NCBI GenBank assembly: GCA_964404025.1
Contig: CAYOIJ010000001.1
Coordinates: 22,685 to 86,684, forward strand
DNA: 64,000 bases
Direction: 5' to 3'
DNA from: an uncultured Pseudomonadales bacterium
GTDB lineage: Bacteria; Patescibacteriota; Microgenomatia; UBA1400; PJMF01
Shown: piece by piece, positions 697-52,607 of the stretch
How the letters are laid out: each line of letters begins with the position of its first letter
Numbering within the stretch: position 1 is the first letter of the stretch
Notes under the pieces: generated by a model
Seen by the model: only the letters and a program-made list of their open reading frames with translations
Told to the model about the DNA's origin: nothing
Database searches by the model: none
Made by a program: the position numbers and the translations under genes

Positions 697-749
697 AAAT
701 TAAGACTCTTTTACTAAGGGTCAAAATCTAGTAAACTTAAACAAGACTC

Positions 750-4039: not shown

Positions 4040-4050
4040 AAAATTGCCCC

Positions 4051-4080
4051 TTGTCAAATGTGGAAAACACTGTGTATAAC
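4051..4080 (+). promoter_or_regulatory. Putative dnaA promoter. A TTGTCA -35-like element and a TATAAC/GTATAA -10-like element overlap two DnaA-box-like 9-mers (TGTGGAAAA 4059-4067, TGTGTATAA 4071-4079)
   Basis: Read directly. Each 9-mer has one mismatch to TGTGGATAA (the reverse complement of TTATCCACA). 60-90 nt upstream of the dnaA ATG. Confidence 0.3.
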
Positions 4081-4143
4081 TATGAGTGTTAAATTTCTTT
4101 TGTAGTTTCAAATTCTGCCCCAGAAAGATGTCTAAGGATTAGT

Positions 4144-5652: not shown

Positions 5653-5713
5653 ACACATTAAAAAAACTGATTTATGCTTATTTTTTAAACAAAAACAAAC
5701 ATAAACAATACAC

Positions 5714-5722
5714 TTTTCCACA
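5714..5722 (+). promoter_or_regulatory. DnaA box, one mismatch (TTTTCCACA)
   Basis: Read directly. 15 bp upstream of the perfect box and in the opposite orientation. Confidence 0.5.
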
Positions 5723-5736
5723 AACCTGAAAAACTC

Positions 5737-5745
5737 TGTGGATAA
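5737..5745 (-). promoter_or_regulatory. Perfect DnaA box (TGTGGATAA on +, which is TTATCCACA on -)
   Basis: Exact 9-mer read at 5737-5745. Confidence 0.75.
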
Positions 5746-5860
5746 AGTATGAATAAACTGTGAAAAAGCTTGAATAATTATTAACCCCTTGTTTATTAAA
5801 CTTAAACTTATGCTAAGTTCTTCTAAAAAGCTCACAAGGAAATTCACTACTTTATGCCAT

Positions 5861-5869
5861 TTATTCACA
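5861..5869 (+). promoter_or_regulatory. DnaA box, one mismatch (TTATTCACA)
   Basis: Read directly. Confidence 0.5.
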
Positions 5870-5937
5870 AAAAAATTAGACCTAAAAAGAACATTTTTTT
5901 TGAGTAATTTCATCGTTTTCGTGAATAAATTTTCACT

Positions 5938-6005
5938 TTCCCACCACACCTACTACTACTATTACTATTTATATATAAATTAATTATAGAAATTAAAATT
6001 TATCA
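5938..6005. repeat. GC-cluster (CCCACCACACC), then six tandem trinucleotides TAC TAC TAC TAT TAC TAT (5951-5968), then an AT-rich tract (5969-6005). This architecture resembles DnaA-trios followed by a DNA unwinding element
   Basis: Read directly. The order DnaA box, GC cluster, 3-nt periodic repeat, AT-rich region matches the described bacterial basal unwinding module. Confidence 0.5.
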
Positions 6006-6011
6006 GTTACA

Positions 6012-7160
6012 ATGAAGTTTATGAAAATAATCGCTCTACAAGAAAATATTAAACAAGAACTTGTTTATTTACAAAAAATTATACCAAGTAGACCACAATT
6101 ACCAATTTTATCTTCTATTTTTCTTAAATCCCAGGATAATAAATTAGTTCTGGCCGCAACAGACCTATATCTAGGTATGCGGTCTAGCACAGTGGTTGAG
6201 GTTAAAGAAAAAGGATCTCTAGTTGTTGATGGTGATACTTTTCGTAGTTTAATTTTTTCCCTTTCTCCTGGAAAAATTACTCTAGAGTTAGTAGACTCTG
6301 TTTTGAAAATAACCCAGGGTAAAACAAAAATTAAATTAAGCTGTCAATCTACCGAAGAATATCCTAAATTTCCTGATGTCAGTGGTGACTCTTTTAAGTT
6401 ACAAACAACAGATTTGGAAAAGATTCAAAAATTAGTAATCTTTGCTACTAGCACTGATCAAACAAGACCGGTTCTAACATCGTTATTAATGAAATTTTCT
6501 GACAAAGGTTTGACCGTTGTCGGAACAGATGGTTTTAGATTAGCCAACCTTGAGCTTAATGAACTCAAATTCTCTTTTAATAAAAATCTAATGGTTCCGG
6601 CCAAAGCACTAAGTGAATTGTTGAGAATAGCTAAGCAGTGCCAGAGTGACGAAGTGGAAATAATTGTAGCTGAAGAATTAAAACAGCTTTTATTTAAGGT
6701 TAATGGTATTGAGTTTTTTGTCAGATTAATCGAGGGAGATTATCCACCCTATCAAAAAATTATTCCTCCAAGCTTTCGCTTAAAAGCACAAATTGATGGC
6801 GAGGAGTTTCTAGATCAACTTAAAAGAGCACAAATTTTTTCAAGAGAGAGTTCGAATATTGTTCGCTTGTCATTTAAAAATGAAAATAAAAACAATTATT
6901 TGATAATAAAATCAATCTCCCCAACTTACGGAGAATATGTTGGAGAGATGTCCATTGAGATAGATACTGAAATTTTAAAGCAAGAATTAAACGAACTACA
7001 AATAGCTTTTAATGTTTTGTACTTAATTGATTTCATTAACGCAGTTGACACAGAAAAAATATCTTTAAGCGTAAACGAAAGCTTAAAACCCGCGAAATTT
7101 ACCAATCCATCAGATAAAAACTATTTATATATTAGCATGCCGTTCAGAGTCAACGAATAA
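6012..7160 (+). CDS. dnaN: DNA polymerase III beta sliding clamp
   Basis: Position after dnaA. 382 aa. The N-terminus MKFMKIIALQENIKQELVYLQKIIPSRPQLPILSSIFLK...LAATDLYLGMRS matches the DnaN N-terminal signature (R.TLPILSN.L....L.L.ATDLE). Confidence 0.85.
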   Translation: MKFMKIIALQENIKQELVYLQKIIPSRPQLPILSSIFLKSQDNKLVLAATDLYLGMRSSTVVEVKEKGSLVVDGDTFRSLIFSLSPGKITLELVDSVLKITQGKTKIKLSCQSTEEYPKFPDVSGDSFKLQTTDLEKIQKLVIFATSTDQTRPVLTSLLMKFSDKGLTVVGTDGFRLANLELNELKFSFNKNLMVPAKALSELLRIAKQCQSDEVEIIVAEELKQLLFKVNGIEFFVRLIEGDYPPYQKIIPPSFRLKAQIDGEEFLDQLKRAQIFSRESSNIVRLSFKNENKNNYLIIKSISPTYGEYVGEMSIEIDTEILKQELNELQIAFNVLYLIDFINAVDTEKISLSVNESLKPAKFTNPSDKNYLYISMPFRVNE

Positions 7161-26132: not shown

Positions 26133-27959
26133 ATGCTTTTTAATCGATTAACCCAATATTTGCTCAATTTAGAAAAACTTAGTTCTCGTCTGGAAATGAC
26201 AGAATTATTAGCTGAAGTTTTTAAAGAGCTTGGTGAAGAAGAAATCGCGCCAGCTAGTTATTTATTGCAAGGAGGTTTGGTCCCTAGCTATCAATCTCTA
26301 GAGTTTCAATTATCCAATAAAATGTTGGTGCGCTCTCTAGCCAATTTTTATCTTCGTTATGAAAATTCTCTAAAAGATAAAGGTCGAGAGCTATTTTCAG
26401 AGCAAAATTTGTTTGGCGCTGACAATCAAGAGCTAATTGTTAAGAGGTTAAACAAACAATACAAAGAAATGGGTGACTTGGGAGATTTGTTTTATCAAAC
26501 ATTAGATAATTTTTCAGAATTACTAAATAATGATAAAAATTTAAATATTTTGGAAGTTCATCAAAAACTAGAAGATATTGCCAGGGTTGGAGGACTAGGT
26601 TCTCAGGATAAAAAAATCAATCTTTTGGCTGATTTATTAAGTCAGGTTAGTCCCTTATCAGGTAAGTTTATAGCGCGGATTATTTTGGGGAAAATGCGTT
26701 TGGGTTTTTCTACTATGACCATGTTGGACGCATTGTCATGGGTAAAAACAGGGGACAAAAGTGAGTCTCCGGCTTTGGAGGAAGCTTTTCAAAAAAAAGC
26801 TGATTTTGGTTTGTTGGCAAAACTATATCTTTTTGAAAAAGATCTTAATGCTAAAGAATTAGCCAGTCGTTACAAAATGGAGCTGGGCATTCCAGTAGTG
26901 CCAGCACTATGCCAAAGACTGAATAGTTCTCAAGAAATTATTGATAAAATGGGTGAACTTATAGCTGAACCAAAATATGATGGTTTACGTATCCAAATCC
27001 ATCTCAATAAAGCTGGCTTTGCTGATGGTAGCCGATATAAAGCTTATACTCGCAATTTAGAAGAAGTATCAGCGATGTTTCCAGAATTAGATCAATTATT
27101 GGAAGAATTTCAGGGTGAAACAGCTATTTTAGATAGTGAGGCTGTCGGTATTAATCCTGATTCTGGGAAGTTTGTTGCTTTTCAAGAAACCATTTCTCGT
27201 AAACGTAAATATGAAGTTGATGCTAAAGCCTTGGAGTTACCCATTCGCTTTTATGTTTTTGATTTATTGTATTTGAATGATGAGTCTCTAATTGATGAGC
27301 AACTACTTGATCGTAAAAAAAAGCTCAGCAAGGCAATTAATGACTCACAAGTGGTTAAAATAACTGATTACCAAATTATCAGTGATCCAATTGTTTTAAC
27401 TAATTATCATGAAAAACAATTAGACCTTGGTTTAGAGGGCGCAGTAATGAAAAAACCAGAATCTGCTTATGTGGCTGGTCGTAAAGGTTGGCGTTGGGTA
27501 AAAATCAAGGAAGCTGAGGGTAAACGAGGTAAATTAAATGATACTCTTGACTGCATTATGATGGGTTATTATCGAGGCAAAGGTAAGAGACAAAGCTTTG
27601 GTATTGGGGCGCTGTTAGTTGGTGTTTTAGATGAAGTCAGTGGCAAAATTAAAACTTTATCTAAGATTGGTACTGGTTTAACTGATGAGCAATTTCGCAA
27701 AGTTAAGAATTTGGCAGATCAGCACTTGACCAGCAATCATGAGCCTAACTCAAAATATGATTTTAAAAAAGAATTGGCAGCTGATGTGTGGATTGAGCCA
27801 AAATTAGTCTTGGAAATTGCAGCTGATGAAATTTCCAAATCTCCGAGCCATACTGCTACGGTGGCCCTGCGCTTCCCTCGTTTGATAAAAATTAGGGGCG
27901 ACAAGGATTGGCAACAAGCAACTACCCTTCAGGAATTAAAAAATATTAGTCAGGCTTAA
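26133..27959 (+). CDS. lig: ATP-dependent DNA ligase (Lig1-like, with N-terminal DNA-binding domain)
   Basis: Motif I AEPKYDGLRIQIH (KxDGxR). LDSEAVGI (motif III). EGAVMKK (motif IV). RKGWRWVKIK (motif V). 608 aa. Confidence 0.8.
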   Translation: MLFNRLTQYLLNLEKLSSRLEMTELLAEVFKELGEEEIAPASYLLQGGLVPSYQSLEFQLSNKMLVRSLANFYLRYENSLKDKGRELFSEQNLFGADNQELIVKRLNKQYKEMGDLGDLFYQTLDNFSELLNNDKNLNILEVHQKLEDIARVGGLGSQDKKINLLADLLSQVSPLSGKFIARIILGKMRLGFSTMTMLDALSWVKTGDKSESPALEEAFQKKADFGLLAKLYLFEKDLNAKELASRYKMELGIPVVPALCQRLNSSQEIIDKMGELIAEPKYDGLRIQIHLNKAGFADGSRYKAYTRNLEEVSAMFPELDQLLEEFQGETAILDSEAVGINPDSGKFVAFQETISRKRKYEVDAKALELPIRFYVFDLLYLNDESLIDEQLLDRKKKLSKAINDSQVVKITDYQIISDPIVLTNYHEKQLDLGLEGAVMKKPESAYVAGRKGWRWVKIKEAEGKRGKLNDTLDCIMMGYYRGKGKRQSFGIGALLVGVLDEVSGKIKTLSKIGTGLTDEQFRKVKNLADQHLTSNHEPNSKYDFKKELAADVWIEPKLVLEIAADEISKSPSHTATVALRFPRLIKIRGDKDWQQATTLQELKNISQA

Positions 27960-34286: not shown

Positions 34287-34290
34287 AGGG

Positions 34291-34364
34291 TGCGTGTGCT
34301 AGGACTTGAACCTAGAACCGCCAAGGTATAAGCTTGGTGCTCTAACCAATTGAGCTACACACGC
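34291..34364 (-). tRNA. tRNA with anticodon UAU. Ile-type, reading AUA, is inferred from the anticodon and D-arm only. 74 nt, with CC encoded after the discriminator A
   Basis: Hand-folded cloverleaf. Acceptor GCGTGTG/CACACGC is a perfect 7 bp. U8 A9. D-stem GCTC/GAGC with loop AATTGGTTA. Anticodon stem CCAAG/CTTGG with loop C-U-UAU-A-C. Variable loop CGGTT. T-arm CTAGG-TTCAAGT-CCTAG. Discriminator A. Confidence 0.8.
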
Positions 34365-40066: not shown

Positions 40067-41113
40067 TTAATCGTTTATTAAAACCTTATAAGCTGATAAA
40101 AAGAAAACCTCCTTTTTTCTAAATCCACTTTTTTTTAAAACACTAATAAAATCTGTAATTTTATAAAATTTATACCAGTTCTGGTTAAAATTTAACTTTA
40201 ATATTGATTTTTTCAGCGAAAGAAACAAGTAGCCATATTCAATATCCTTGGTTGAGGAATCGGGAGTAAAGTGAATAAAAGTAATTTTTTCATTCTTAGT
40301 TTTCAATAAGGAGTAACTTTTATCCAATGCTTTTGGTTTTTTTTGACTCAAATACAGGCAATACACTGTTTGTTCTACTAAGTGAATCTGATATAAAAAT
40401 TCTACGCCTCTGTAGTAGTCTCTAATTATTCTTTCATACAAGGCATTACCAATGTTTTCTAACCAGTGATTTAAGTTTTTAAGGGTTCGCTGAGGATTTA
40501 CTGATTCTCTATTTATGCATAGCAAGCCACTATTTAATTGCTGAGGTAGGTTTTTCATTTTTAAATACTTTTGTGCCTCAATCGGTGAAATTACTTTAAA
40601 GTTCAAGTAATCCTGCAAGTACAATGAAAATAAATTTTTTGCATCTTTATCATTTACCCAGTCGATAATTTTTTTAGGAGAAGAAAAAAATAAACAGTCG
40701 GCATCTATAACAATGATTTTCTTGTATTGAGATAAAATTGGAGTGAATAATTTTTTTCCTGCCCAGGTTTTTTGATACATCTCCTCTGCAATTGAATGTT
40801 TTTTAAGCAGCGTTAGTGTTTGGGAATTAAGTTTTTCTAATAATTCAAATTCAGAACCCATTAATTTTATAAGCTTTTTGTGAAACTTTGTAAGTGATCC
40901 GTCATTGACGAAAATGATTTTGACATTTTTCACGAATTTTTTAAAACTAATTGCACTCAAAATTCCTAAATATATGTATTGATTGCCAACAGTAATAAAA
41001 GCAGCGGTGTTTTTTATTAATTTATTTTTAGAATTTTTCTTAAAAGAAATAATTAATACATTGACAAATATGGCAGTATTGACAATGTATCTTTTTAAAC
41101 GATGTTTGATCAT
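40067..41113 (-). CDS. Hypothetical protein, possible nucleotide-sugar-dependent glycosyltransferase (DxD-like KIIVIDADCLFF)
   Basis: 348 aa. N-terminal hydrophobic segment. Only weak motif evidence. Confidence 0.35.
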   Translation of the reverse strand: MIKHRLKRYIVNTAIFVNVLIISFKKNSKNKLIKNTAAFITVGNQYIYLGILSAISFKKFVKNVKIIFVNDGSLTKFHKKLIKLMGSEFELLEKLNSQTLTLLKKHSIAEEMYQKTWAGKKLFTPILSQYKKIIVIDADCLFFSSPKKIIDWVNDKDAKNLFSLYLQDYLNFKVISPIEAQKYLKMKNLPQQLNSGLLCINRESVNPQRTLKNLNHWLENIGNALYERIIRDYYRGVEFLYQIHLVEQTVYCLYLSQKKPKALDKSYSLLKTKNEKITFIHFTPDSSTKDIEYGYLFLSLKKSILKLNFNQNWYKFYKITDFISVLKKSGFRKKEVFFLSAYKVLIND

Positions 41114-41248: not shown

Positions 41249-42625
41249 ATGAAAACAAAGGTTATTTTTGTTAATCCACCATTTTATAGGTCAGAAAATT
41301 CAAACGCATCCAATAACTTCAAGGTGGATGGACCGAGATTTCACAAGATATATAGGAACATCCCTCAATTATTAAAAATTTGGAATAAATTTAGAGATCC
41401 TACGGTTAGATTTGGTGTAAGAGCTGGGTCTAGATGGCCGTGGACTTGGGATCAGCCCCTAGAACCAATTCACTATCCATTTATGATGGCTTATGCAACT
41501 TCATATTTGATTTCAAAAGGAATAGAATCAAAATTAATTGATTCTATCGCTGAAGAAGACTACTCTTATTCTAACTTTCTCAAAAAAATAAAAAAGGAAA
41601 AAGCAGATATTGTTGTCATGGAAACCTCTATGATTTCTTTGGACATTGATATGTGGTTGGCTAAAAAAATTAGTAGCTTTAGCGAGGTAGGAATAGCTGG
41701 CTCTTATGTAACTTATTATGCTCAAAGTATGCAAAATAAATATCCTTTTATCAGCTATTTGTTGCCAGGAGAATATATAAAATCATCTTTTAAAATGGCA
41801 GTCAAGAAACAAAAGGGTGTTTATAAATCAGAAATTATAAGTGACTTGGATGCATTGCCTTTTCCATACAGAGACTATCCAGAGTCAATAAAGTATTACG
41901 ATCCTACGATGCCAACCCCCAAGCCTCAACTGCAAATTTATGGGAGCAAGGGTTGTCCCTTCAAATGTTCGTTTTGTCTTTGGACTCAAACCATGTATTT
42001 TCATAAGTTCACACTGAGAGACCCTAAGAGAATTGCCGAAGAAATTAAGCATTGTGTAAAAAAATATAAATTTAAAAGTATTTTTTTTGATGATGACACT
42101 TTTAATATTGGCAATGAACGCATAAGTGAATTATGCGACCTATTAAAAGAAATTAATTTACCATGGACGATGATGGGGAGACTAGATTGTTCTCCTGATT
42201 GGTTGATTGACAAAATGGTTGCTTGTGGCTGTGTTGGCATGAGGTTTGGTTTGGAGACTTTTAATAAAAAAGTTAGTAAAAGAGTAGATAAGGGATTGGT
42301 CGATCAGAATCTTTACAAGAAAATAAAAAGATTGAGTGATAAGTATCCTAAATTAATGTTGAGAATATTCATGATGAAAGATTTACCAGGTCAGACAAAT
42401 CAAATGCATCAATCTGATATGAAAAAATTACAAGGTCTAGGATTTAAAGAATTTGGTGATAAATATAGACAAATTCAAGTATCTGTTTGTGCGCCTTTTC
42501 CCGGAACTAAACTGTTTGAAGAAATTAAGGACAAAGTTGATTCTGATAAATTAGACGATTATCGTTTATATGATGGGCACTTAAATACAATAATGAAATA
42601 TTTTAATAAAAATAATTCAAACTAG
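41249..42625 (+). CDS. B12-binding-domain radical SAM enzyme
   Basis: CxxxCxxC cluster YGSKGCPFKCSFCLW. N-terminal roughly 180 aa consistent with a cobalamin-binding Rossmann-like domain (ADIVVMETSM...). 458 aa. Confidence 0.7.
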   Translation: MKTKVIFVNPPFYRSENSNASNNFKVDGPRFHKIYRNIPQLLKIWNKFRDPTVRFGVRAGSRWPWTWDQPLEPIHYPFMMAYATSYLISKGIESKLIDSIAEEDYSYSNFLKKIKKEKADIVVMETSMISLDIDMWLAKKISSFSEVGIAGSYVTYYAQSMQNKYPFISYLLPGEYIKSSFKMAVKKQKGVYKSEIISDLDALPFPYRDYPESIKYYDPTMPTPKPQLQIYGSKGCPFKCSFCLWTQTMYFHKFTLRDPKRIAEEIKHCVKKYKFKSIFFDDDTFNIGNERISELCDLLKEINLPWTMMGRLDCSPDWLIDKMVACGCVGMRFGLETFNKKVSKRVDKGLVDQNLYKKIKRLSDKYPKLMLRIFMMKDLPGQTNQMHQSDMKKLQGLGFKEFGDKYRQIQVSVCAPFPGTKLFEEIKDKVDSDKLDDYRLYDGHLNTIMKYFNKNNSN

Positions 42626-42636
42626 TATTTTCAGTT

Positions 42637-43494
42637 ATGAAAATTTTAATTGTTGGGGCTTCAGGATTTATCGGTTCAGCACTACATTTTTCTTTGGCAA
42701 AAAAAACAAAGGTGATAGGTACTTATTACAAAAACTACGTTCCTGGCACTTATTATTTAGATGCCAATAGTCCTGATAATATAAAAAACTTTTTAAAAAA
42801 ACATACAGATATTGATTTTATTATTTTGAGTCATGGTGTTAAAGATTTAGTAAAGTGTGAAAATGATTATTCGTTGGCTTATCAAAACAACGTTCAACAA
42901 ACAATTAACATTGTTGAATCATTAAAATGCTTTAATAATAAAGCTAGGGTTATATATATATCATCTAATTATGTTTTTGATGGAAAAAAAGGTTTATATA
43001 AAGAGTATGATAAAAAAAATCCAAGAACTATTTACGGCAAGACTAAGTCTTTGGCAGAAGACTATTTAATTAGCCAGGATGTTCCTTGGACAATTATTAG
43101 AACGTCTTCTGTCATAGGTTTAAAAAGTAGTTTTATTAGCTATGTTAAACGGGAGTCTTTGAAAAAGAATAAAATATTTCTCTATAAAAATGTAAACATT
43201 AACCCGACTCCAGCAACAATGTTGATGGATTTTTTTGATTTACTAGTCTTTGATAGTGATTTAAACAGTACTAAAAATCAAATCCTTCATTTTGTAGATA
43301 AAAAAATTGAAAGCAAATATAGCTTTGTTATAAATAACTACAAAGTATTGAGTTTAGAAGTTGAGATAGAGCCAATAATAAGTGAGAGTCCACTTTATTT
43401 TGAGAATTTAACAATGAAGGTTACTGATAAATTTTACTCTCAACTAAGCTCATCTTATGACAAATATTTAAGAGAATCACTAACTGAAAACTAA
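42637..43494 (+). CDS. NAD(P)-dependent sugar-nucleotide reductase, RmlD-like (dTDP-4-dehydrorhamnose reductase family)
   Basis: MKILIVGASGFIGSAL Rossmann motif. YISSNYVFDGKKGLYKEYDKKNPRTIYGKTKSLAE matches the RmlD S.DYVFDG...Y.E.D...P...YG.SK pattern. 285 aa. Confidence 0.6.
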   Translation: MKILIVGASGFIGSALHFSLAKKTKVIGTYYKNYVPGTYYLDANSPDNIKNFLKKHTDIDFIILSHGVKDLVKCENDYSLAYQNNVQQTINIVESLKCFNNKARVIYISSNYVFDGKKGLYKEYDKKNPRTIYGKTKSLAEDYLISQDVPWTIIRTSSVIGLKSSFISYVKRESLKKNKIFLYKNVNINPTPATMLMDFFDLLVFDSDLNSTKNQILHFVDKKIESKYSFVINNYKVLSLEVEIEPIISESPLYFENLTMKVTDKFYSQLSSSYDKYLRESLTEN

Positions 43495-43496
43495 TT

Positions 43497-44690
43497 TTAT
43501 TTCAATAATGAATTGACTATATTAACTAGTTTTTTGATTTCGATGTCCATATTAGCTTGTTCAGTCACATACTTGTAACCTTTTTCTATTATTTTTTCTT
43601 TTAAATCTGGATTCTTTAAATAAAAAGATATTTTTTTTTCTAGATCTCTGTTGCCACTACTGACTATTAGTTTGTTGTGCAGAGAGTGTTTTTTATTAAT
43701 AAATCTTGCATCGGTAATCACAAATCCCTTGCAAGCTAACGCTTCCAATGTTCTAAGAGTAACAACATTCAATCTTAAATGATCTAGGGCTGTAAAATTC
43801 AAACAAATTTTACTTGAATTATATAGACTTCTTACATGAGCTTGTGATATTTTTCCTCTGGATATTTGAGAAAAAATTGAACTGTCATAGTAGGTATAAC
43901 TATAAATGTTTGCAATTATTCTGACTTTTAAATTATTTATTTCAATTTCTAATTTTTGTTTTTTGTCTTCTATTTTTAAAATGAAATTATTGGCTATCTT
44001 TTTTAGATGTCTGAATTTATTTTTTAAATATATCAGCACAGCTTTAAAATTACGTTTATCTGAAGCAAAATTTTTAATACTTATTTTAATTTTTTTATAT
44101 ACTTTTAACTGTTTTGATTCTTCTTTTTTTATAATTTCTTTAGAGTTGGCTTGATTCCAGCCTCCAAATAATCCAAACTTGAATTTTAATGGTGGAAGCA
44201 GATATTTTTCTGTATGTTCTTTATTTTTAATATTATTCCCAACATAAACGACATCATAAGAATTCTTTTTTACTTTTTTCTCAGGGAAAAATATTTCTGT
44301 ATCTACACAAAAAGGGAAATAAAATACTTTTTTATTTTTTAATTTAGTTTTGTATGATTCATACAATTTTTTTGAAACAAATATATAGGCATCGTATTTA
44401 TATTTGCTAATTTTAAACAAAATCTTTTCAGATTTTTCTTGATAAGGATCTTGCAAATAGAGAACGTGTTTTTTTGCCCAATTTTTGTTTAAAGGCGTTT
44501 CGTCCAGATAGATCATCAAATCAATCTTTTTTAAGGGTAGATTGATGGCAGAATATAATCTTGCACGAATCTTATTAGGTTTATTAATTCTTTTACATAG
44601 TGATTCTGCATACAACTCATCTCCAACAACATAGTTATTGTTTTTTAGAGATCCTGTATGGTATTTTGTATAGAAACCAATATTAATCAT
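43497..44690 (-). CDS. CgeB-like glycosyltransferase (Glyco_trans_1_2 C-terminal domain)
   Basis: C-terminal LRLNVVTLRTLEALACKGFVITDA...KKISFYLKNPDLKEKIIEKGYKYV fits the R.FEa.acG...kl.yyl.np..r motif of CgeB-type GT-B enzymes. Confidence 0.5.
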   Translation of the reverse strand: MINIGFYTKYHTGSLKNNNYVVGDELYAESLCKRINKPNKIRARLYSAINLPLKKIDLMIYLDETPLNKNWAKKHVLYLQDPYQEKSEKILFKISKYKYDAYIFVSKKLYESYKTKLKNKKVFYFPFCVDTEIFFPEKKVKKNSYDVVYVGNNIKNKEHTEKYLLPPLKFKFGLFGGWNQANSKEIIKKEESKQLKVYKKIKISIKNFASDKRNFKAVLIYLKNKFRHLKKIANNFILKIEDKKQKLEIEINNLKVRIIANIYSYTYYDSSIFSQISRGKISQAHVRSLYNSSKICLNFTALDHLRLNVVTLRTLEALACKGFVITDARFINKKHSLHNKLIVSSGNRDLEKKISFYLKNPDLKEKIIEKGYKYVTEQANMDIEIKKLVNIVNSLLK

Positions 44691-45616
44691 TATTGAAATT
44701 GTTCTTTTGTTGAATGATAGTTTGCTATAGTTAAACCTTTAACAATTTCATAAGTTTTTTTACTGAATTTTAAAAAGTTTTCCTTTACAGTTTTATAATG
44801 ACAAAAATTAAAAATATTTTTAAAATCTGAATAAACATATTTAAGATTTTCATTCAATACTTGCTTGCTTAATTGATGGTCAAATTTACCAATATAACTA
44901 TAACAAGCAATTTCTCCGCCAAGATAAGATAACTTTAATTTTTGATGCTCCTTTTTTGTTAGCCACCTATTGTGGTGCAAAATTATCTTGGGTTCATAAA
45001 GTATAGTTTTTTTGTTTATCAGAGCTCTCAGTGCTATTTCTGCATCTTCAGCACTTTTGGTTCTTGTTCCAGGTCCCAGCCATTCTTTAAAACCTCCATG
45101 TTTTTTAAAAAAACTGCTTTTCCAAGCCATGTTGTTGCCAAAACCTATGTTTTCCCAATGTTTACATGGTTTACTAATATATCTTTTTTGATTTTTTAAA
45201 AAAACTGCTGGGCAAACCAAACCGTTATTAATATTTTTTTTGTAAGGCAATGTTTTACCAAAGACAGCGACTATTTTTTTGTCATTTTGCAGGGTTGATT
45301 TAATATTTTTTAGCCAATTGAAGCTTGGTAAACAGTCATCATCAGTAAAAGCAATTATTGGAGTGGTGCTTAGTTTAATTGCGAGATTTAAGGCTTTAGA
45401 TTTACCTTCATTACTTGTATAAATATAGCGACAATTTTTTATTTTTTTAATTTCTTTTTTTAAGGCATGGCTCATCTTTTTTGAGCAACTTTGATCTACA
45501 ATAATTAATTCAAAATTATTAAAATTGCCATTATTTAAAGCCTGTAGACAATTAGTTAATTGTTTTTGACGATTTTTTGTTGCGATAATGAGAGATAATT
45601 CTGTTGACGTTGACAT
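44690..45616 (-). CDS. Glycosyltransferase family 2
   Basis: SLIIATKNRQKQLTNCLQAL...ELIIVDQSC...GKSKALNLAI...IIAFTDDDCLP (GT-A DxD). Confidence 0.8.
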   Translation of the reverse strand: MSTSTELSLIIATKNRQKQLTNCLQALNNGNFNNFELIIVDQSCSKKMSHALKKEIKKIKNCRYIYTSNEGKSKALNLAIKLSTTPIIAFTDDDCLPSFNWLKNIKSTLQNDKKIVAVFGKTLPYKKNINNGLVCPAVFLKNQKRYISKPCKHWENIGFGNNMAWKSSFFKKHGGFKEWLGPGTRTKSAEDAEIALRALINKKTILYEPKIILHHNRWLTKKEHQKLKLSYLGGEIACYSYIGKFDHQLSKQVLNENLKYVYSDFKNIFNFCHYKTVKENFLKFSKKTYEIVKGLTIANYHSTKEQFQ

Positions 45617-45634
45617 TGATATAATATTTTTGTA

Positions 45635-46051
45635 TTAGAGGCTATAATATTTTTTTTGCACTGAACCGAGAAAAGGTCCTTGTTTGACTTCAAATATTTC
45701 AGCTTGTGTTAACAGTTCGAAGCTATGACCCAAAGATCTTTGAAATAAAATATCCCCCTTTTTTAAAATTTCAGTTTGAAATAATTTCCCTTGCTTGTTG
45801 TAGAAATTTACTTTAACTTTTCCCTTAACAATGTAAAAAACCTCCTGCAAGCTATCCACAGAACATTTTTGAAAGCAATGGTAATGAGCTTTTAATTTAG
45901 CACCTTTGGGCTTTTTATGATAACCAACTTGCAAATAATCTTCCTTTTTTGAAAAAAAATCCAAATTATCAATTGGAAACTGTGCCCTCACAATATAAGC
46001 AATTTCTTTGTTGTTGTAGAGGATTTTTTTGATGTTTTCTGTTTTTGACAT
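45635..46051 (-). CDS. Cupin-fold WxcM/FdtA-like protein (possible sugar-nucleotide ketoisomerase)
   Basis: 138 aa. GYHKKPKGAKLKAHYHCF... resembles the WxcM-like C-terminal cupin domain. Lies in a glycan locus. Confidence 0.5.
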   Translation of the reverse strand: MSKTENIKKILYNNKEIAYIVRAQFPIDNLDFFSKKEDYLQVGYHKKPKGAKLKAHYHCFQKCSVDSLQEVFYIVKGKVKVNFYNKQGKLFQTEILKKGDILFQRSLGHSFELLTQAEIFEVKQGPFLGSVQKKYYSL

Positions 46052-46242: not shown

Positions 46243-47409
46243 ATGGATATAATTTTTTCAACCTATGAGGCTAAAGAAATTGGTGGAAGTTATTTGCGTT
46301 CCTTGTCTTTAGCGCAGGGATTAACTGAGCTAGAACATCAAGTGACTTTGTGGACTAGTGCTAAAAAAATTAGTTTCTTACCAAAAGTAAGTTATGAAAA
46401 GGGTGTAAAGGTTGTAGAATCAATAGGCTTAATGCCTTATCGTTTTCGAAAAGGGGGAAATGACATTTTTGATATTTGTTTTAGAAGTTTGGCTATTTTC
46501 TTTTCAAAATGTGATGTTATTCAAAGTTTTAATCATCGGCCAGCAGCGACTATTCCTGCTTTGATTAAGTCTCGCTTTTTTCCAAAAACAAAGTGGTTTT
46601 TGGATTGGGCTGACCTCTGGGGAAGAGGAGGTATAGCAGATCGTCGTTATGGACCTTTTAGTTTTTTAACAGTGAATTTTGATCATTATACTGAGCGTCT
46701 TTTTATTCGTTTAGCTTTTGCTGTTACAGTAATTAGTGATGATTTAGTTAAAAAAGCTAAATTAATTAGAAAAAAAAAGAACAATGTATTTTTTCTAGGT
46801 GTTGGAGCTAATATTCAAGGCATTAAGACGATGTCTAAATTTCTTGCGAGACGCAAACTGGGTTTGAGTCAAACAAAAAAAATACTAGTTTATTTATATG
46901 TTGGTACTTATGATGAAGAGTTATTGGCTAAAACTTTTATAGAGTTAAACCATTTAAGGAAAGATGTGCTATTAATGTTGTTGGGTCCTCCAATACCAGC
47001 TTTCGAGAAAGAAATAAACGTTCATAAGAGTTTAAACAATAAGGTTATATATCAAGGAGTTGTTGATAGAGATTTGCTAAGTTTATATTTGTCGGCTGGC
47101 GATTTAATGCTTTTACCTTTTGCAGATAAAGAAATTAATAGAGGTAAATTTCCCAATAAACTGGGAGATTATTTGGCAGTTGGCAGACCCACGATTGCTA
47201 ATCCAACCGGCGAAGTTAAGAAATTATTGACTCAGGAAAAAGTTGGAATTTTAGCTCCAGAGACACCAAAAGAGTTTGCTTCTGCGATAAATAAAAGTCT
47301 TAAACAAGTAAGCAAATTAAGACAGCTGGGTAAAAATGCTAGGATATTAGCTGATAAACTATCTTGGCGCACTATTGCTCAAGAGCTTGAAGCTTTTTAC
47401 ATTAAATAG
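46243..47409 (+). CDS. Glycosyltransferase family 1 (GT4-like, GT-B fold)
   Basis: C-terminal LMLLPFADKEINRGKFPNKLGDYLAVGRPTIANPTGEV (E..G.P.KL.EY.A.G.P.I motif). Confidence 0.75.
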   Translation: MDIIFSTYEAKEIGGSYLRSLSLAQGLTELEHQVTLWTSAKKISFLPKVSYEKGVKVVESIGLMPYRFRKGGNDIFDICFRSLAIFFSKCDVIQSFNHRPAATIPALIKSRFFPKTKWFLDWADLWGRGGIADRRYGPFSFLTVNFDHYTERLFIRLAFAVTVISDDLVKKAKLIRKKKNNVFFLGVGANIQGIKTMSKFLARRKLGLSQTKKILVYLYVGTYDEELLAKTFIELNHLRKDVLLMLLGPPIPAFEKEINVHKSLNNKVIYQGVVDRDLLSLYLSAGDLMLLPFADKEINRGKFPNKLGDYLAVGRPTIANPTGEVKKLLTQEKVGILAPETPKEFASAINKSLKQVSKLRQLGKNARILADKLSWRTIAQELEAFYIK

Positions 47410-48222
47410 GTTTTTTCTAAAAAACCAAATATTTTTTTCTTGATTGAAATATATGCTTGGACTTAACTTACATAAGTGAACAAGTTTTGTTATCTGTCTC
47501 CATATAACTTTAATTATTGTTGCTAAGACAATTGGTGTTTTATCGTTTATTTCGGCGTAATATTTTCGGTGTTGATCATTGTTTTTTCGATTAGGATTGA
47601 GTCGATATGAGGCCAAACAGGCATCAACACAATAGAGTTGACTGTGTTGTGCAAATTTTTGCCAAAGCTTCATGTCCATTGAATAAGGCACTTCATCTAA
47701 TTTACCTCCAGTTTTTTCCCATAGTGATCTTCGCCAAAAAGTTCCCTCTTGCATAATAAAACCCAATAGTTTTCTGGTATATAATCCTTTTTTAATTAAA
47801 GACCTTATGTACAGAGGTTTTCTAGCTAAATATATGAGGTGTCCAGTTTCGTTTATGGTAGATGGCAAACTTGTTAGCCAATCTATTTCTGGAAATTTTG
47901 CAAAAATGCTAGCTACTAGCTTGAAGGTGCCTGGTTTAATAATGTCGTCACTATTAATCCAAGCCATAATTTCACCGTTAGTTTGTGCAAAACCCTTGTT
48001 AATGGCATGAGATTGTCCTCGATCTTTTTTGCTCTCAAAATAATCAATTTTTTTTTGATATTTTTTGATAATTTCCAAACTTTGATCACTTGAACCCCCA
48101 TCTATTATTAGATATTCAAAATTGGGATAATCTTGATTTAAAACTGATTGAATTGTTTCTTCAATAAATTCTCCTTGATTGTAAGATGGAGTGACAATAG
48201 AAATTTTAGGCAATTTCTTCAT
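47359..48222 (-). CDS. Glycosyltransferase family 2
   Basis: KISIVTPSYNQGEFIEETIQSVLNQDYPNFEYLIIDGGSSDQSLEII, classic GT2 N-terminus. 287 aa. Confidence 0.85.
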   Translation of the reverse strand: MKKLPKISIVTPSYNQGEFIEETIQSVLNQDYPNFEYLIIDGGSSDQSLEIIKKYQKKIDYFESKKDRGQSHAINKGFAQTNGEIMAWINSDDIIKPGTFKLVASIFAKFPEIDWLTSLPSTINETGHLIYLARKPLYIRSLIKKGLYTRKLLGFIMQEGTFWRRSLWEKTGGKLDEVPYSMDMKLWQKFAQHSQLYCVDACLASYRLNPNRKNNDQHRKYYAEINDKTPIVLATIIKVIWRQITKLVHLCKLSPSIYFNQEKNIWFFRKNLFNVKSFKLLSNSAPR

Positions 48223-49114: not shown

Positions 49115-50576
49115 AGTGTGTTAATGAGACTCCAATTAGGAATAAAGTATTTAATAAATTTCTTTCTGGATGAAAAAGCATTATTATAAAACTTCCTATT
49201 ATTCCAGAGTATAACATTGTTTTATTGATGCTGCTAATAGCATCCAATTTTATTAGATGTTTTAAAAAGTAATAAAAAAACAATAAATATACTAATAAAC
49301 CAAAAATACCTCTTTCTATCATAAACAGCAAGAAACCCTGATGAACATTCTCTGGAAAGTAGCTAACAACTCCCTTTGGAAAAAGTTGGTAAGCAATGGG
49401 AACAAACATTTGATCGCCAATACCTAGAAATGGACTTTTCTTAAATATTTCCCAAGCTTCTTGATATTGTATTAATCTAGTGCTGAAACCTCCCCAATCA
49501 CTAAAACTATAGATTGAATTAAGTAAGCGACTACTAAATTTGCTAAATAGAAAAAGTGCAATCAATAAAAATAAAAACCTATGGGCCCTACTAGTCTTAG
49601 TTAACTTTTTTTTCCAATTTGAAAATTGATCATTAAAAAATTTTGGGTGTCTGAAACAAACAAATAGAGCGCTGATTATCAAAGCTAAATAAGCGGCTCT
49701 ACTCAAAGAAAGAAATATAACAACTATTGAACCTAAGATTGTCCAATTAACAAAGTCTTTAAAGGGAGCTGCTAGCTTTTTTAAATAAAATTTAATAAAA
49801 GCCAATAAGAATATGTAAATGAGATGTTTATTAGCTAAGCCATTGGGGTGATAGGCTAGGCCGAAAGGTCTAAATCCACCCGAGCCCTCGTCTGCTCCTA
49901 GGCCAAAAATTGGAGCCGTTTTTGTAGTTTCTACGATTAAGCCAATTGGTCGTTTAAATAATACTTGTGCTAAGACAAGAATACTTTCGTAGTTGACTAA
50001 AATGAGCCATATAAATAAAAAAGTAGTGAGCAATCTATAAAACTCTTTTTTATTTAAATTATTTTTTAATAAGATCAAATAATAGGCCCAAATCACTGAT
50101 AAAAAACTATTAAAAACAAAAAAAAGGCTAATTTCTAATAATACGGCCCCATAAATAGCAGATAAAAATCCACTAGCAGCTACAATAATTATTAATTTCT
50201 CATGAATTAACAATTTCACTTTGTTTTTGTATATTCTTTGCCAAAATGGAATTAGAAGTAGAGCAACAGTGGCAATCATTAAGTAAGGAGTAAAAGTCCA
50301 AGATAAGTGTCGACCTTCAAAATATTGATGAACAACTATGGCTTTTGCAGGAACAACTAGAGTCGAATGGGATTGACCTATCCAAAGAGTAGTTAATATA
50401 GGTGCGACATAAATGATTGCTTTACTAAAAGAGTAGCGCCAAGTTAAAAAAAATAAAAATACAAAAGATAGGGCAAAAAAACTTTTTACATTAGGTAACA
50501 GGCTAGTAACTAATAAAAACAGCAAACAGGATAAGACCGCAAGCAAATCAGTTGATTTTTTAATTTTTTGCCACAT
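49095..50576 (-). CDS. Polytopic membrane protein, possible O-antigen polymerase/ligase (Wzy-like)
   Basis: About 11-12 TM helices with a larger loop near the C-terminal third. Context within the glycan locus. Confidence 0.4.
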   Translation of the reverse strand: MWQKIKKSTDLLAVLSCLLFLLVTSLLPNVKSFFALSFVFLFFLTWRYSFSKAIIYVAPILTTLWIGQSHSTLVVPAKAIVVHQYFEGRHLSWTFTPYLMIATVALLLIPFWQRIYKNKVKLLIHEKLIIIVAASGFLSAIYGAVLLEISLFFVFNSFLSVIWAYYLILLKNNLNKKEFYRLLTTFLFIWLILVNYESILVLAQVLFKRPIGLIVETTKTAPIFGLGADEGSGGFRPFGLAYHPNGLANKHLIYIFLLAFIKFYLKKLAAPFKDFVNWTILGSIVVIFLSLSRAAYLALIISALFVCFRHPKFFNDQFSNWKKKLTKTSRAHRFLFLLIALFLFSKFSSRLLNSIYSFSDWGGFSTRLIQYQEAWEIFKKSPFLGIGDQMFVPIAYQLFPKGVVSYFPENVHQGFLLFMIERGIFGLLVYLLFFYYFLKHLIKLDAISSINKTMLYSGIIGSFIIMLFHPERNLLNTLFLIGVSLTHYEKKTI

Positions 50577-51567
50577 AACCTAATAAGTAGTGTCTTTCAA
50601 AGTTTTTAATCAAGCAAGTAGCAAAAATTTTTTTAAAAAAAGAATTACATTCTATATGTTCTTTATATTTTTGATAATCTTTAACAAAATTTTTAATGGC
50701 ACGTAAAAAAAATAATAAGAATAATTGGTTTTTTAGATTAACTAAATTATCGTTGAGTTTCCACTTATCGTTTAAGTATTTGGCTAATTTCCCACGGTGA
50801 AAAGCTCGGCATTTAAATCTAGCAAAAGAATCAGTTTCTTCGTGATAAATTAACATTTTTGGAGTATAAGCTCCTTTAACACATCCTTTTTTAACTTGAA
50901 AATCTAAATCAAAATCAGCTGAATCATAATATAAACTTTGACATTTTTCATCAAATTTTAATTTCTTTTTTTTGAAAAAAGTAGCGTCAAGCAATAGGTT
51001 TTTAGTATCTAATAATTGGCCATTATATTCTTTCCAAAAGTTGTCTCTAGCGTGTTGAGCAATAGCAAAAATATTTTGGGTATTTAATAATTTAGTAATT
51101 CCTAAGACATATTTTGATTTTGTATCAGAGATTGTTTCTAGAGCTTTTTTAAGCCAGTTCTTGTCTGCTACGCAATCATCATCAATAAAGGCTAGATAAG
51201 GACTTTGATTAAATTTCATTGCTTGATTGCGGCAAGCAGGCACAGTTTTTTTGGGTAAATGATGGTACTCAATTTTTAACTTGTTGAACAATTCGTCTTG
51301 GGCGATTGGAAGTGCAGATTGCTTATCATCATTATCCACAATAATGATGGTGAACAATTTAAAACTTTGTTTTTTTAAGCTTAATAAACATCTCTTTAAC
51401 TTGATCGGTCTATTTTTGGTTATGATAGCAATGCTGACTGGTAAGACTGAATTTTTCATTAGAATTGTTATTATAATATAATAAACCAATGCTAAAGAAT
51501 GCTTTAATCTTAATTCCTGATTTATCTGGAGGACAACAAGTTTGTGATTTTGTTTGGCAAACAGCAC
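50560..51567 (-). CDS. Glycosyltransferase family 2
   Basis: VSIAIITKNRPIKLKRCLLSLKKQ...TIIIVDNDDKQS...LAFIDDDCVADKNW. Confidence 0.75.
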   Translation of the reverse strand: MLFAKQNHKLVVLQINQELRLKHSLALVYYIIITILMKNSVLPVSIAIITKNRPIKLKRCLLSLKKQSFKLFTIIIVDNDDKQSALPIAQDELFNKLKIEYHHLPKKTVPACRNQAMKFNQSPYLAFIDDDCVADKNWLKKALETISDTKSKYVLGITKLLNTQNIFAIAQHARDNFWKEYNGQLLDTKNLLLDATFFKKKKLKFDEKCQSLYYDSADFDLDFQVKKGCVKGAYTPKMLIYHEETDSFARFKCRAFHRGKLAKYLNDKWKLNDNLVNLKNQLFLLFFLRAIKNFVKDYQKYKEHIECNSFFKKIFATCLIKNFERHYLLGYVAKN

Positions 51568-52607
51568 TGGGTTTATCTAAAAACAATCAAGTTTATATTA
51601 TTAATTTTAATCAGCAAGAATTTAAGAAAAATAAAAACATAAGGCAGATAAAGCCTTTTAATTGTTTACCATTTAGTAGATTTACTCTTATTAAAAAAAT
51701 AAATCAGCATTTATACAAATTCTTATTAGGACTTTGGTTTTCTTTGAAATTTCCTTTAAAGAGACGTTATCTATGGATCTTTTTTCCTCAATTGGCAGAT
51801 TTATTAAGTTTGAGATTTTTTGCTTTTTCAATTGTTTTTGATATTGTTGACTTTCACTTTTCTTTTGATTCTGATGCTTATCAAAAACTACAAACACAAA
51901 AGAAAAAAATACTGGACAGCGCTGATTATATTTTTTCTATATCAAAAAGTTTAAAAAAATTATATGAAAATGAAACTGATAAAGAAATTCACTTGGTAAA
52001 ACAAGGGTTCGATTATCAAACTTTCAAAAAAAGAGCCAAAAAGAGTGTTAAGGTACCTGGTAGTAAGCCAATTATAGGTTTTGTGGGACAGATAAGCATG
52101 CGTTTAGATTTTTCATTATTAGATGATTTGCTTAAGGATAATCCAAATCTAAACTTTGTTTTTATTGGTCCTTTGCACTATGAGCCCAACGTTAGCCAAG
52201 ATTCAGGCTTATTACTTTTAAAAGAAAAATTTAATCAGCTTTTGACTCATTCAAATTTTTTTCATTATGATAAGCAAGAGAGAAATAAAATTTTATCCTT
52301 TATTGAGACCTTTGATCTTGCAATTATTCCTTATGACGCATCTTTAGTATTCAATCGCTATTGTTATCCAATGAAATTATTCGAATATTTTTATGCTGGT
52401 AAGCCGGTGGTCAGCAGTAATATTAAGGAGCTACAAAAATTTCCTAATTTTGTTAAAATTGCTTATTCACGAGATGATTGGCAAAAGCTGATTTTGCAGT
52501 TACTAAACCAGGATTGGTCAAAAAAACAACAGCAAAAGCAAAGGAAAATAGCTTTAGTAAATTCTTGGGAAAATAAATTGAATGAGATGATGTCTATCAT
52601 CGATTAA
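51489..52607 (+). CDS. Glycosyltransferase family 1-like (GT-B)
   Basis: C-terminal FDLAIIPYDASLVFNRYCYPMKLFEYFYAGKPVVSSNIKEL. Confidence 0.6.
   Translation: MLKNALILIPDLSGGQQVCDFVWQTALGLSKNNQVYIINFNQQEFKKNKNIRQIKPFNCLPFSRFTLIKKINQHLYKFLLGLWFSLKFPLKRRYLWIFFPQLADLLSLRFFAFSIVFDIVDFHFSFDSDAYQKLQTQKKKILDSADYIFSISKSLKKLYENETDKEIHLVKQGFDYQTFKKRAKKSVKVPGSKPIIGFVGQISMRLDFSLLDDLLKDNPNLNFVFIGPLHYEPNVSQDSGLLLLKEKFNQLLTHSNFFHYDKQERNKILSFIETFDLAIIPYDASLVFNRYCYPMKLFEYFYAGKPVVSSNIKELQKFPNFVKIAYSRDDWQKLILQLLNQDWSKKQQQKQRKIALVNSWENKLNEMMSIID

Follow-up and report, generated by a model that had tools for sequence, protein, structure and literature searches.

In the libraries and literature searched here, radical S-adenosylmethionine (SAM) enzymes that tailor sugars occur in antibiotic (AprD4) and hopanoid (HpnJ) pathways, and none has been assigned to prokaryotic surface polysaccharides. 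AprD4 dehydrates a sugar 1,2-diol to a keto-deoxy sugar, which is then reduced by AprD3 (PMC5461906), and it was found to bind no cobalamin despite its Rossmann-like domain (PMC12931638). HpnJ is a proposed non-methylase, a ring contractase that would convert bacteriohopanetetrol (BHT)-glucosamine into a cyclitol ether; its support is genetic only and its reaction has never been reconstituted (PMC13459092). OxsB is a cobalamin-dependent non-methylase that carries out the oxidative ring contraction of deoxyribose. Here we describe a radical SAM gene from a 64,000-nucleotide stretch (the window) of contig CAYOIJ010000001.1, assembly GCA_964404025.1, from an uncultured bacterium of the candidate phyla radiation (CPR). 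Judged from its sequence and that of its relatives, this gene is predicted to be the radical-chemistry component of a conserved sugar-tailoring module, whose other parts are a GT-B glycosyltransferase (GT), an RmlD-like short-chain dehydrogenase/reductase (SDR) and a CapF/RmlC-type cupin. Radical SAM sugar tailoring with a reductase partner is a known kind of chemistry; what is new is its widespread, glycosyltransferase-coupled context. The literature searched holds no description of this cassette, nor of a B12-type radical SAM enzyme in polysaccharide loci, and the cassette appears to be undescribed.

The original prediction for this DNA had given both the open reading frame (ORF) and the CPFKCSFC motif, and both are confirmed, the former with exact coordinates and an ATG start and the latter at aa 236-243. 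A search with the Radical_SAM profile, which it had proposed as a check, was also positive (PF04055, E=8.8e-11, 42.7 bits against a cutoff of 29.5, aa 233-378). The motif and this above-cutoff score together identify the product as a member of the radical SAM superfamily. The features of the gene are as follows:

41249..42625, + strand: radical SAM enzyme gene, 458 aa (ATG-to-stop ORF; PF04055 match; orthologues 50-59% identical)
41249..41848, + strand: N-terminal Rossmann-like domain, aa 1-200, a B12-binding homologue (model secondary structure; PF02310 matches in the family)
41414..41446, + strand: GVRAGSRWPWT loop, aa 56-66, a signature common to HpnJ and a third subfamily (the L005 paralogues)
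41621..41773, + strand: putative cobalamin-tail elements E125-x-S127, A150-G151 and G174-E175 (motifs of PMC9204698; model secondary structure)
41924..42538, + strand: radical SAM partial-barrel core, aa 226-430 (PF04055 at aa 233-378; AprD4 alignment at aa 197-429, 2.2e-19)
41954..41977, + strand: CPFKCSFC (CxxxCxxC), with C236, C240 and C243 as predicted [4Fe-4S] ligands (all three Cys invariant in 88 of 88 sequences)

A search with the protein finds 2018 homologues at E<=1e-5, and the top-scoring 120 share 50-59% identity with it over their full length (~455 aa); the gene is therefore real and conserved rather than a chance ORF. An exhaustive profile search recovered 841 representatives at E<=1e-30, with a core family ringed by a halo of distant relatives. 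As the core collapses to very few clusters at 50% identity, the family is a tight one, and its members are more than 50% identical even between phyla. Residue conservation was counted over 88 distinct family sequences. In the GVRAGSRWPWT loop, G56, A59, G60, S61, R62 and P64 are invariant. An AlphaFold model of the protein was built on 32 homologues (pLDDT 92, pTM 0.91), and in it C414 lies at the end of beta6 within the radical SAM core; this position is Cys in 86 of the sequences, Ala in HpnJ and Ile in AprD4. Cys414 may donate a hydrogen atom or a proton. The possibility that the three extra invariant cysteines hold an auxiliary Fe-S cluster was rejected, since these residues are far apart in sequence and only C414 is at the active-site end of the barrel (in the predicted model C296 is on an outer helix and C328 at the N-terminal end of beta4).

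None of the curated NCBIfam models claims the protein. The best is HpnJ (TIGR03471), which aligns over aa 58-429 and has a cutoff of 577.6 bits. On this model the window protein scores 133.4 bits, two other members of the family (P0025 and P0032) 153-157 and true HpnJ of Acidobacteria 762-767. Other NCBIfam scores are lower: ApyD 93, PhpK 74, AprD4 73 and Sden_1168 72 bits. The AprD4 model (NF033070, cutoff 500) covers only the radical SAM core at aa 194-429, and methylase models are far under their cutoffs (PhpK 74 of 600, KedN5 20 of 700 and HpnR 31 of 650 bits). When the whole model was compared with solved structures using Foldseek, AprD4 was the top match (TM 0.70/0.71, E=1e-19), followed by full-length matches to TsrM, CysS, OxsB, TokK and MgmA, then by RimO/MiaB, with HemN-type proteins far behind. 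Based on these comparisons, the family is best described as uncurated and as a probable sister to HpnJ.

The kinship with HpnJ extends along the whole protein and takes in the N-terminal domain as well as the G-x-S-R-W-P loop and an FFDDDTFN motif, and HpnJ, as proposed here for the new family, acts on a sugar glycoside downstream of a glycosyltransferase. The two nevertheless differ in several respects. Identity is only 27-29%, the ~60-aa C-terminal tail of HpnJ is missing, HpnJ has Ala at the position of Cys414, and an insertion of ~40 aa in the N-terminal domain (aa 14-53 in the alignment) belongs to the new family. HpnJ is partnered by HpnI and HpnK, whereas the new family is partnered by the GT-B protein, the SDR and the cupin. 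No hopanoid genes (hpnH, hpnI, hpnK or shc) were found near the radical SAM gene, and its neighbourhood in the window consists of glycan genes only. A scan of genome contigs with the full family alignment returned 4 orthologues among the 80 loci listed and was dominated by true HpnJ, with which the family has the AGSRWPWT and FDDDTFN sequences in common. A third subfamily with the G-x-R-A-G-S-R-W-P loop was seen at L005:5117-8132 as two tandem paralogues of 502 and 479 aa. These have clear PF02310 and PF04055 matches, score 271-289 bits on the HpnJ model and adjoin LpxB and a GFO/IDH/MocA oxidoreductase, another glucosamine-glycolipid context.

The gene neighbourhood was compared across 88 orthologous loci, which fall into 62 clusters at 90% identity. 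Four come from genomes (Maribellus, Haematospirillum, a metagenome-assembled genome (MAG) of Ca. Limenecus and Helicobacter japonicus), four from long contigs (a Nitrospiraceae MAG, Trichlorobacter thiogenes, the archaeon Ca. Argoarchaeum and one more) and 80 from metagenome contigs found with a family-specific peptide pattern derived from a sub-alignment. The carriers include Bacteroidota, Alphaproteobacteria, Campylobacterota, Nitrospirota, Trichlorobacter, the Ca. Limenecus MAG and the archaeon Ca. Argoarchaeum. Across them the order of genes on one strand is near-invariant: a Glyco_trans_1_2 protein of ~320 aa, the radical SAM enzyme, an RmlD-like SDR of ~290 aa and a cupin of ~120 aa. The GT-like gene is directly upstream of the radical SAM gene and on the same strand in 61 of 65 loci (45 of 47 clusters), and in 47 loci its stop overlaps the radical SAM start by 4 bp. 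The SDR is directly downstream, again on the same strand, in 70 of 74 loci (50 of 53 clusters), and the cupin follows the SDR in 57 of 65 loci (42 of 50 clusters).

Each of the three partners can be placed by fold or profile. A homologue of the GT-like protein was modelled with a pLDDT of 91.7 and shows a complete GT-B fold, nearest to GT4-type enzymes such as sucrose-phosphate synthase (SPS), GlgM, MshA, PimA and BshA. The profile of the cassette cupin matches the C-terminal cupin of Cap5F (6.5e-6) and the QdtA/FdtA ketoisomerases, and it matches the WbjC/CapF model at positions ~252-315 of 372. As Cap5F, WbjC/CapF and QdtA/FdtA all act beside a sugar carbonyl, the partner cupin points to keto-sugar chemistry, as does the RmlD-like SDR with its intact catalytic motif. 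CapF/WbjC is an SDR-cupin fusion, the C3-epimerase and C4-reductase of UDP-4-keto-6-deoxy-HexNAc, and its domain order is mirrored by the gene order of the cassette, although CapF has both activities on one chain and the cassette has separate polypeptides. There is a parallel with RmlC/RmlD as well, in that the SDR is RmlD-like and a version of the cassette on contigs classed as viral includes, in one locus, a true RmlC. Where the CapF and RmlC/RmlD pathways differ is that the core of the cassette has no dedicated NAD-dependent 4,6-dehydratase and has a radical SAM enzyme in that place.

Frequent extras around the cassette are GnT-I-like GT-A proteins with an EDD motif, Wzx flippases, a second SDR (in one locus close to GDP-fucose synthase), O-methyltransferase-like proteins and GT4 enzymes. 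In 37 loci a protein of ~312 aa follows the cupin (e.g. L083:8578-9516 and L082:8615-9529). It is without a Pfam or NCBIfam match and does not occur in the window; a profile built from it resembles GnT-I/POMGnT1 (GT13) in the region of an EDD motif that is invariant. Directly upstream of the Nitrospiraceae cassette (L082:563-5050) are genes for ManC, for a dehydratase resembling Gmd and for a GDP-L-fucose synthase just short of its cutoff (491 against 500 bits), and upstream of the Trichlorobacter cassette (L083) are an extended SDR and an NTP_transferase (RmlA-like) gene. These ManC/Gmd/fucose-synthase and RmlA-like neighbours are possible clues to the sugar that is processed.

Fusion proteins provide a second link to glycosyl transfer. 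Of the 150 best-scoring relatives, 73 are 560-1927 aa long (P0283-P0409), and 22 of these long proteins are natural fusions of a GT2 domain to the radical SAM protein, in both domain orders; several others carry a second, weaker radical SAM-like domain. The possibility that the long relatives are fusions to the GT-B, SDR or cupin of the cassette was rejected, as none was found and the 22 have GT2 domains instead. The original prediction had placed the enzyme in the tailoring of a surface-glycan sugar, and this idea is strongly reinforced by the conserved GT/SDR/cupin cassette together with the GT2 fusions.

The family-specific pattern also matches 15 IMG/VR contigs classed as viral (L170-L184, 17-356 kb). 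In 10 of these there is a divergent trio in the order SDR, GT-like, radical SAM, the last scoring 294-378 bits on the family profile, and two more contigs have all three genes in a rearranged order. In L175, the one IMG/VR locus examined with Pfam, the trio is followed by a true RmlC (PF00908, 199 bits) and by one GT2 and one GT4 enzyme. GenBank phage genomes were found to lack this version of the radical SAM protein.

The original prediction had also proposed a B12-binding-like domain at the N terminus and, with it, the two-domain architecture of class B radical SAM enzymes. Both proposals hold for the family and for the fold, but not for a Pfam search of the window protein itself: PF02310 gives E=0.33 and 11.2 bits against a cutoff of 32.1, and a PF02310 scan of the N-terminal half alone likewise found nothing significant. 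Within the family, 16 of 18 N-terminal domains match PF02310 at E<=0.01 (best 9.7e-10), and this is the sole family matched. In the AlphaFold model the domain has a five-strand alternating beta/alpha fold ahead of the radical SAM barrel. A profile of the N-terminal domain had no significant match among Protein Data Bank (PDB) sequences.

Three features mark base-off cobalamin binding in class B enzymes: Ser or Thr on the beta3-alpha3 loop, Gly on beta4 and Gly-Glu where alpha5 starts (PMC9204698). Putative counterparts are found in the family at the corresponding places, with E125-x-S127 after beta3, A150-G151 on beta4 and G174-E175 just before alpha5; E125, S127, A150, G151, G174 and E175 are conserved in 88, 81, 85, 88, 87 and 88 of the 88 sequences, respectively. 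The window protein has S127, G151 and G174-E175, in a register taken from predicted secondary structure, not from superposition. It departs from near-invariant family residues at positions 126, 128, 129, 130, 152 and 153: in the beta3-alpha3 loop the family sequence ECSTPT is changed to ETSMIS, and AGSY replaces AGPH, so that H153 (conserved in 86 of 88) becomes Tyr. The lack of a Pfam PF02310 match is probably due to divergence in these loops, and the window copy is a divergent member of the family with degenerate B12 loops. CPR bacteria typically do not synthesize cobalamin. Class B architecture alone is no proof of B12 use, since AprD4 has it without cobalamin.

Our preferred interpretation, held tentatively and a little short of probable, is that a non-methylating radical step on a sugar leaves a carbonyl and that the cupin and the reductase finish the conversion. 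The [4Fe-4S] cluster on C236/C240/C243 would reductively cleave SAM, and the resulting 5'-deoxyadenosyl radical would abstract a hydrogen atom from the sugar, which is most likely present as a glycoside that the partner glycosyltransferase has only just formed. The substrate radical would then collapse to a carbonyl-bearing intermediate with no methyl transfer. The cupin would epimerise or isomerise beside the carbonyl and the SDR would reduce it, giving a rare deoxy or rearranged sugar. Three observations argue for such a scheme. First, a reductase is adjacent in ~95% of loci, and formation of a carbonyl by the radical step would account for this best. Second, a cupin of the CapF/RmlC/FdtA kind likewise points to a carbonyl. 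Third, the GT2-radical SAM fusions and the adjoining GT-B gene support coupling to a glycosyltransferase.

The carbonyl could be formed in two ways. In the favoured variant, a 1,2-diol would be dehydrated to a keto-deoxy sugar, as in the AprD4/AprD3 pair. AprD4 is the closest solved structure both by sequence and by fold, has a similar two-domain layout and acts on a sugar glycoside with a paired reductase, AprD3, comparable with the radical SAM-SDR pair. It differs in being only 17-18% identical, in binding no cobalamin whereas the family keeps B12-domain motifs, and in belonging to an aminoglycoside cluster rather than a surface glycan locus, the module here having in addition a cupin and a dedicated glycosyltransferase. 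In the alternative variant, a cobalamin-assisted oxidative rearrangement or ring contraction would take place, as in OxsB and as proposed for HpnJ. OxsB has class B architecture and is among the fold matches (TMq 0.54). It yields an aldehyde that has to be reduced afterwards, and an SDR as partner would be in keeping with this. However, OxsB is ~730-745 aa long with extra domains, acts on a nucleotide together with a partner, OxsA, and has no significant sequence similarity to the window protein. An OxsB-like rearrangement would reconcile the B12 motifs, the HpnJ kinship and the need for a reductase. On balance we would place dehydration slightly ahead of rearrangement.

Several observations weigh against carbonyl formation by the radical step. 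On NCBIfam scores, several B12 methylases are as similar to the protein as AprD4 is. The family appears to keep the cobalamin-tail motifs (S127, G151, G174-E175) and the PF02310 similarity and, as AprD4 binds no cobalamin, this argues against a strictly AprD4-like mechanism. The work of the SDR and cupin could be no more than the conversion of an NDP-4-keto-6-deoxyhexose that other enzymes make; genes for RmlA/RmlB or ManC/Gmd/Fcl do adjoin some cassettes, and if the two partners work on a ready-made keto-deoxyhexose, their presence is uninformative on the radical SAM reaction. Finally, the reaction proposed for HpnJ is an isomerisation, which needs no reductase.

The outcome named as an example in the original prediction was C-methylation. 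Under this explanation, the enzyme would be a cobalamin-dependent C-methyltransferase that passes the methyl group of methylcobalamin to a sugar carbon radical, yielding a branched C-methyl sugar, and the SDR and cupin would only prepare a 6-deoxyhexose for transfer and subsequent methylation. We consider this less likely than carbonyl formation, although much of the architecture is compatible with it. Most characterised class B enzymes are methylases, and class B C-methyltransferases such as GenK, Fom3 and MoeK5 have a Rossmann-type domain followed by a radical SAM barrel, as seen here. TsrM, TokK and CysS, the structural references, have TMq values of 0.55-0.62, and the Ser, Gly and Gly-Glu motifs appear to be kept in the family; the PF02310 matches and the apparent conservation of all three tail motifs (PMC9204698) favour this explanation. 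In a published sequence network, HpnJ itself co-clusters with the sp3 C-methylases Fom3 and MoeK5, and the AprD4 model does no better than the methylase models ApyD, PhpK and Sden_1168. Some O-antigens contain C-methyl hexoses, an example being the 3-C-methyl-D-mannose of an atypical H. pylori O-antigen (PMC12961483). The H. pylori strains D1, D3 and D6 produce 3-C-methyl-mannose, and a Helicobacter species carries the cassette. The keto sugar could be supplied by the RmlA/RmlB or GDP-fucose genes beside some cassettes.

Nevertheless, C-methylation is not specifically supported. Every methylase model is far from its cutoff, and the nearest named relatives, HpnJ and AprD4, are non-methylases. 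TsrM, TokK and CysS have C-terminal domains of their own that are absent from the family, and class B methyltransferases have no tight partnership with a ketoreductase and a cupin. Methyl transfer leaves the near-obligatory ketoreductase and the keto-sugar cupin unexplained; the reductase is adjacent in ~95% of loci, whereas the presence of 4,6-dehydratase genes varies and some loci have none. In the window copy, which comes from a CPR host, the B12 loops are degenerate and include the H153Y change, and the family-specific active-site Cys is not required for methylation.

A redox-neutral radical isomerase or epimerase is less probable still. Such an enzyme would act on a glycoside, either by an HpnJ-like ring contraction to a carbocyclic sugar or by epimerisation via Cys414, while the SDR and cupin would work in another step, on the donor sugar. 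The nearest family is HpnJ, with full-length homology and a common SRWP loop, it is the proposed contractase of BHT-glucosamine, and the coupling to a glycosyltransferase resembles that of HpnI/HpnJ; the conserved active-site Cys would also fit the hydrogen-atom donation of epimerases. On the other hand, identity to HpnJ is low and its C-terminal extension is missing, C414 is not conserved in HpnJ, the near-obligatory SDR is left unexplained, and the reaction of HpnJ has itself never been reconstituted. A housekeeping or unrelated radical SAM enzyme (BchE-, MiaB/RimO- or HemN-like) present by chance in a glycan locus, a kind of grouping that the original prediction had named among its refuting cases, is effectively refuted: the automatic JGI names of homologues (e.g. 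P0001) do read 'anaerobic magnesium-protoporphyrin IX monomethyl ester cyclase' (a BchE-type cyclase) and 'YgiQ family', but these are misleading, as the BchE model (TIGR02026) gives 54.5 bits against a cutoff of 481, the RimO/MiaB models give 24.2-24.5 bits against cutoffs of 251-357, the HemN fold match has a TM of only 0.31, several phyla keep the same gene neighbourhood and some relatives have GT2 domains fused to them.

The window has its own version of the cassette, located downstream of the radical SAM gene:

42637..43494, + strand: RmlD-like SDR ketoreductase, 285 aa (RmlD_sub_bind E=4e-32)
43497..44690, - strand: GT-B glycosyltransferase (Glyco_trans_1_2, CgeB-like), 397 aa (PF13524 E=8.8e-17)
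44690..45616, - strand: GT2 glycosyltransferase between the cupin and GT-B genes (PF00535 E=2.2e-21)
45635..46051, - strand: small cupin, 138 aa, a remote homologue of the CapF-like cupin of the cassette (hhalign)

The SDR, encoded on the strand of the radical SAM gene, starts 11 bp downstream of it, and no terminator-like site intervenes. It scores 105.6 bits on the rmlD model against a cutoff of 224, cassette SDRs in general scoring 105-154 bits, and its motifs are intact (GxxGxxG, S109 and Y133-x-x-x-K137). The GT-B protein is 34-44% identical to the cassette glycosyltransferases, is inverted and convergent, and has ~72 extra Lys/Ile-rich residues. The stop of the GT2 gene overlaps the start of the GT-B gene by 1 bp, so that the two are probably co-transcribed. 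A typical cassette cupin is absent, and the small cupin has only sub-threshold matches to Pfam cupin families; against cupin profile A4, hhalign gives it a probability of 92% (E=6.7e-7) with the HYH motif aligned. By these similarities, the window holds all four parts of the cassette in a rearranged layout in a CPR host. The host is Woesebacteria-like: the valyl-tRNA synthetase (ValRS) encoded in the window shares ~75% identity with proteins of Candidatus Woesebacteria, and this assigns the organism to the CPR/Patescibacteria. The closest clade, P0004 (58% identity), has the same convergent layout, and the layout of the window is accordingly a lineage variant. A contig with a 99% identical protein is also arranged in the same way as the window.

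Surrounding these genes is a glycan locus that runs from ~37.7 to 58.9 kb in the window, with a GC content of 0.24-0.32 compared with 0.33-0.40 in the housekeeping flanks. Low GC is usual for horizontally exchanged glycan islands. The flanking genes named in the original prediction, an RmlD-like reductase and glycosyltransferases, are present, the latter at 43497-44690, 44690-45616, 46243-47409 and 47359-48222, and the locus also encodes a Bac_transf initiating transferase, an ABC-2 exporter pair and a Wzy_C protein. A promoter and terminator scan of this AT-rich DNA was uninformative, with 30 sites against 30.7 expected and no terminators. Divergent from the radical SAM gene is a gene for a 348-aa protein (40067-41113, - strand) that has no family match apart from a weak one to Mannosyl_trans3 (E=0.018); the protein has a DAD motif (VIDADCLFF), and homologues occur near the radical SAM gene in two other loci, e.g. 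L146. Farther along, two glycosyltransferase-like ORFs (50560-51567, - strand, and 51489-52607, + strand) overlap at their 5' ends by 79 bp, and one of the two starts, a GTG, is probably called too far upstream.

Three other features of the window were recorded. The only tRNA gene is a tRNA-Ile with anticodon UAU (34289-34364, - strand), an uncommon bacterial way to read AUA. At 1844-4039 (+ strand) is a gene for a VirB4-like conjugal-transfer ATPase of the CD1110 family (389 bits against a cutoff of 325), whose sequence suggests a conjugative or type-IV-secretion-like element in a CPR genome. A gene at 26133-27959 (+ strand) encodes a 608-aa DNA ligase that is ATP-dependent and belongs to the dnl1 (archaeal/eukaryotic-like) type.

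Taken as a whole, the cassette may be an undescribed and horizontally mobile pathway in which the transfer of a sugar is coordinated with its remodelling by the radical SAM enzyme, to give a deoxygenated or ring-rearranged (possibly carbocyclic) residue; we regard this broader proposal as possible rather than probable. Its product would be found in the surface glycans of bacteria, archaea and possibly large viruses. If this is true, rare-sugar biosynthesis would here begin with radical chemistry in place of the usual NAD-dependent dehydratase, and the glycan component that results would be one so far tied to no gene. The family may thus connect an orphan glycan component, whether a deoxy, a carbocyclic or a C-methyl sugar, to its genes. 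It is the closest relative of HpnJ, whose chemistry is unsolved. Being tight, widespread and tied to its three partners, it is a well-defined and tractable lead to a new rare-sugar pathway with a readily testable reaction, and the cassette is carried by cultured organisms, namely Helicobacter japonicus MIT 01-6451, Haematospirillum sp. H1815 and Trichlorobacter thiogenes. The window copy, for its part, is a natural test of the function of a B12-type domain in a reduced-genome CPR bacterium.

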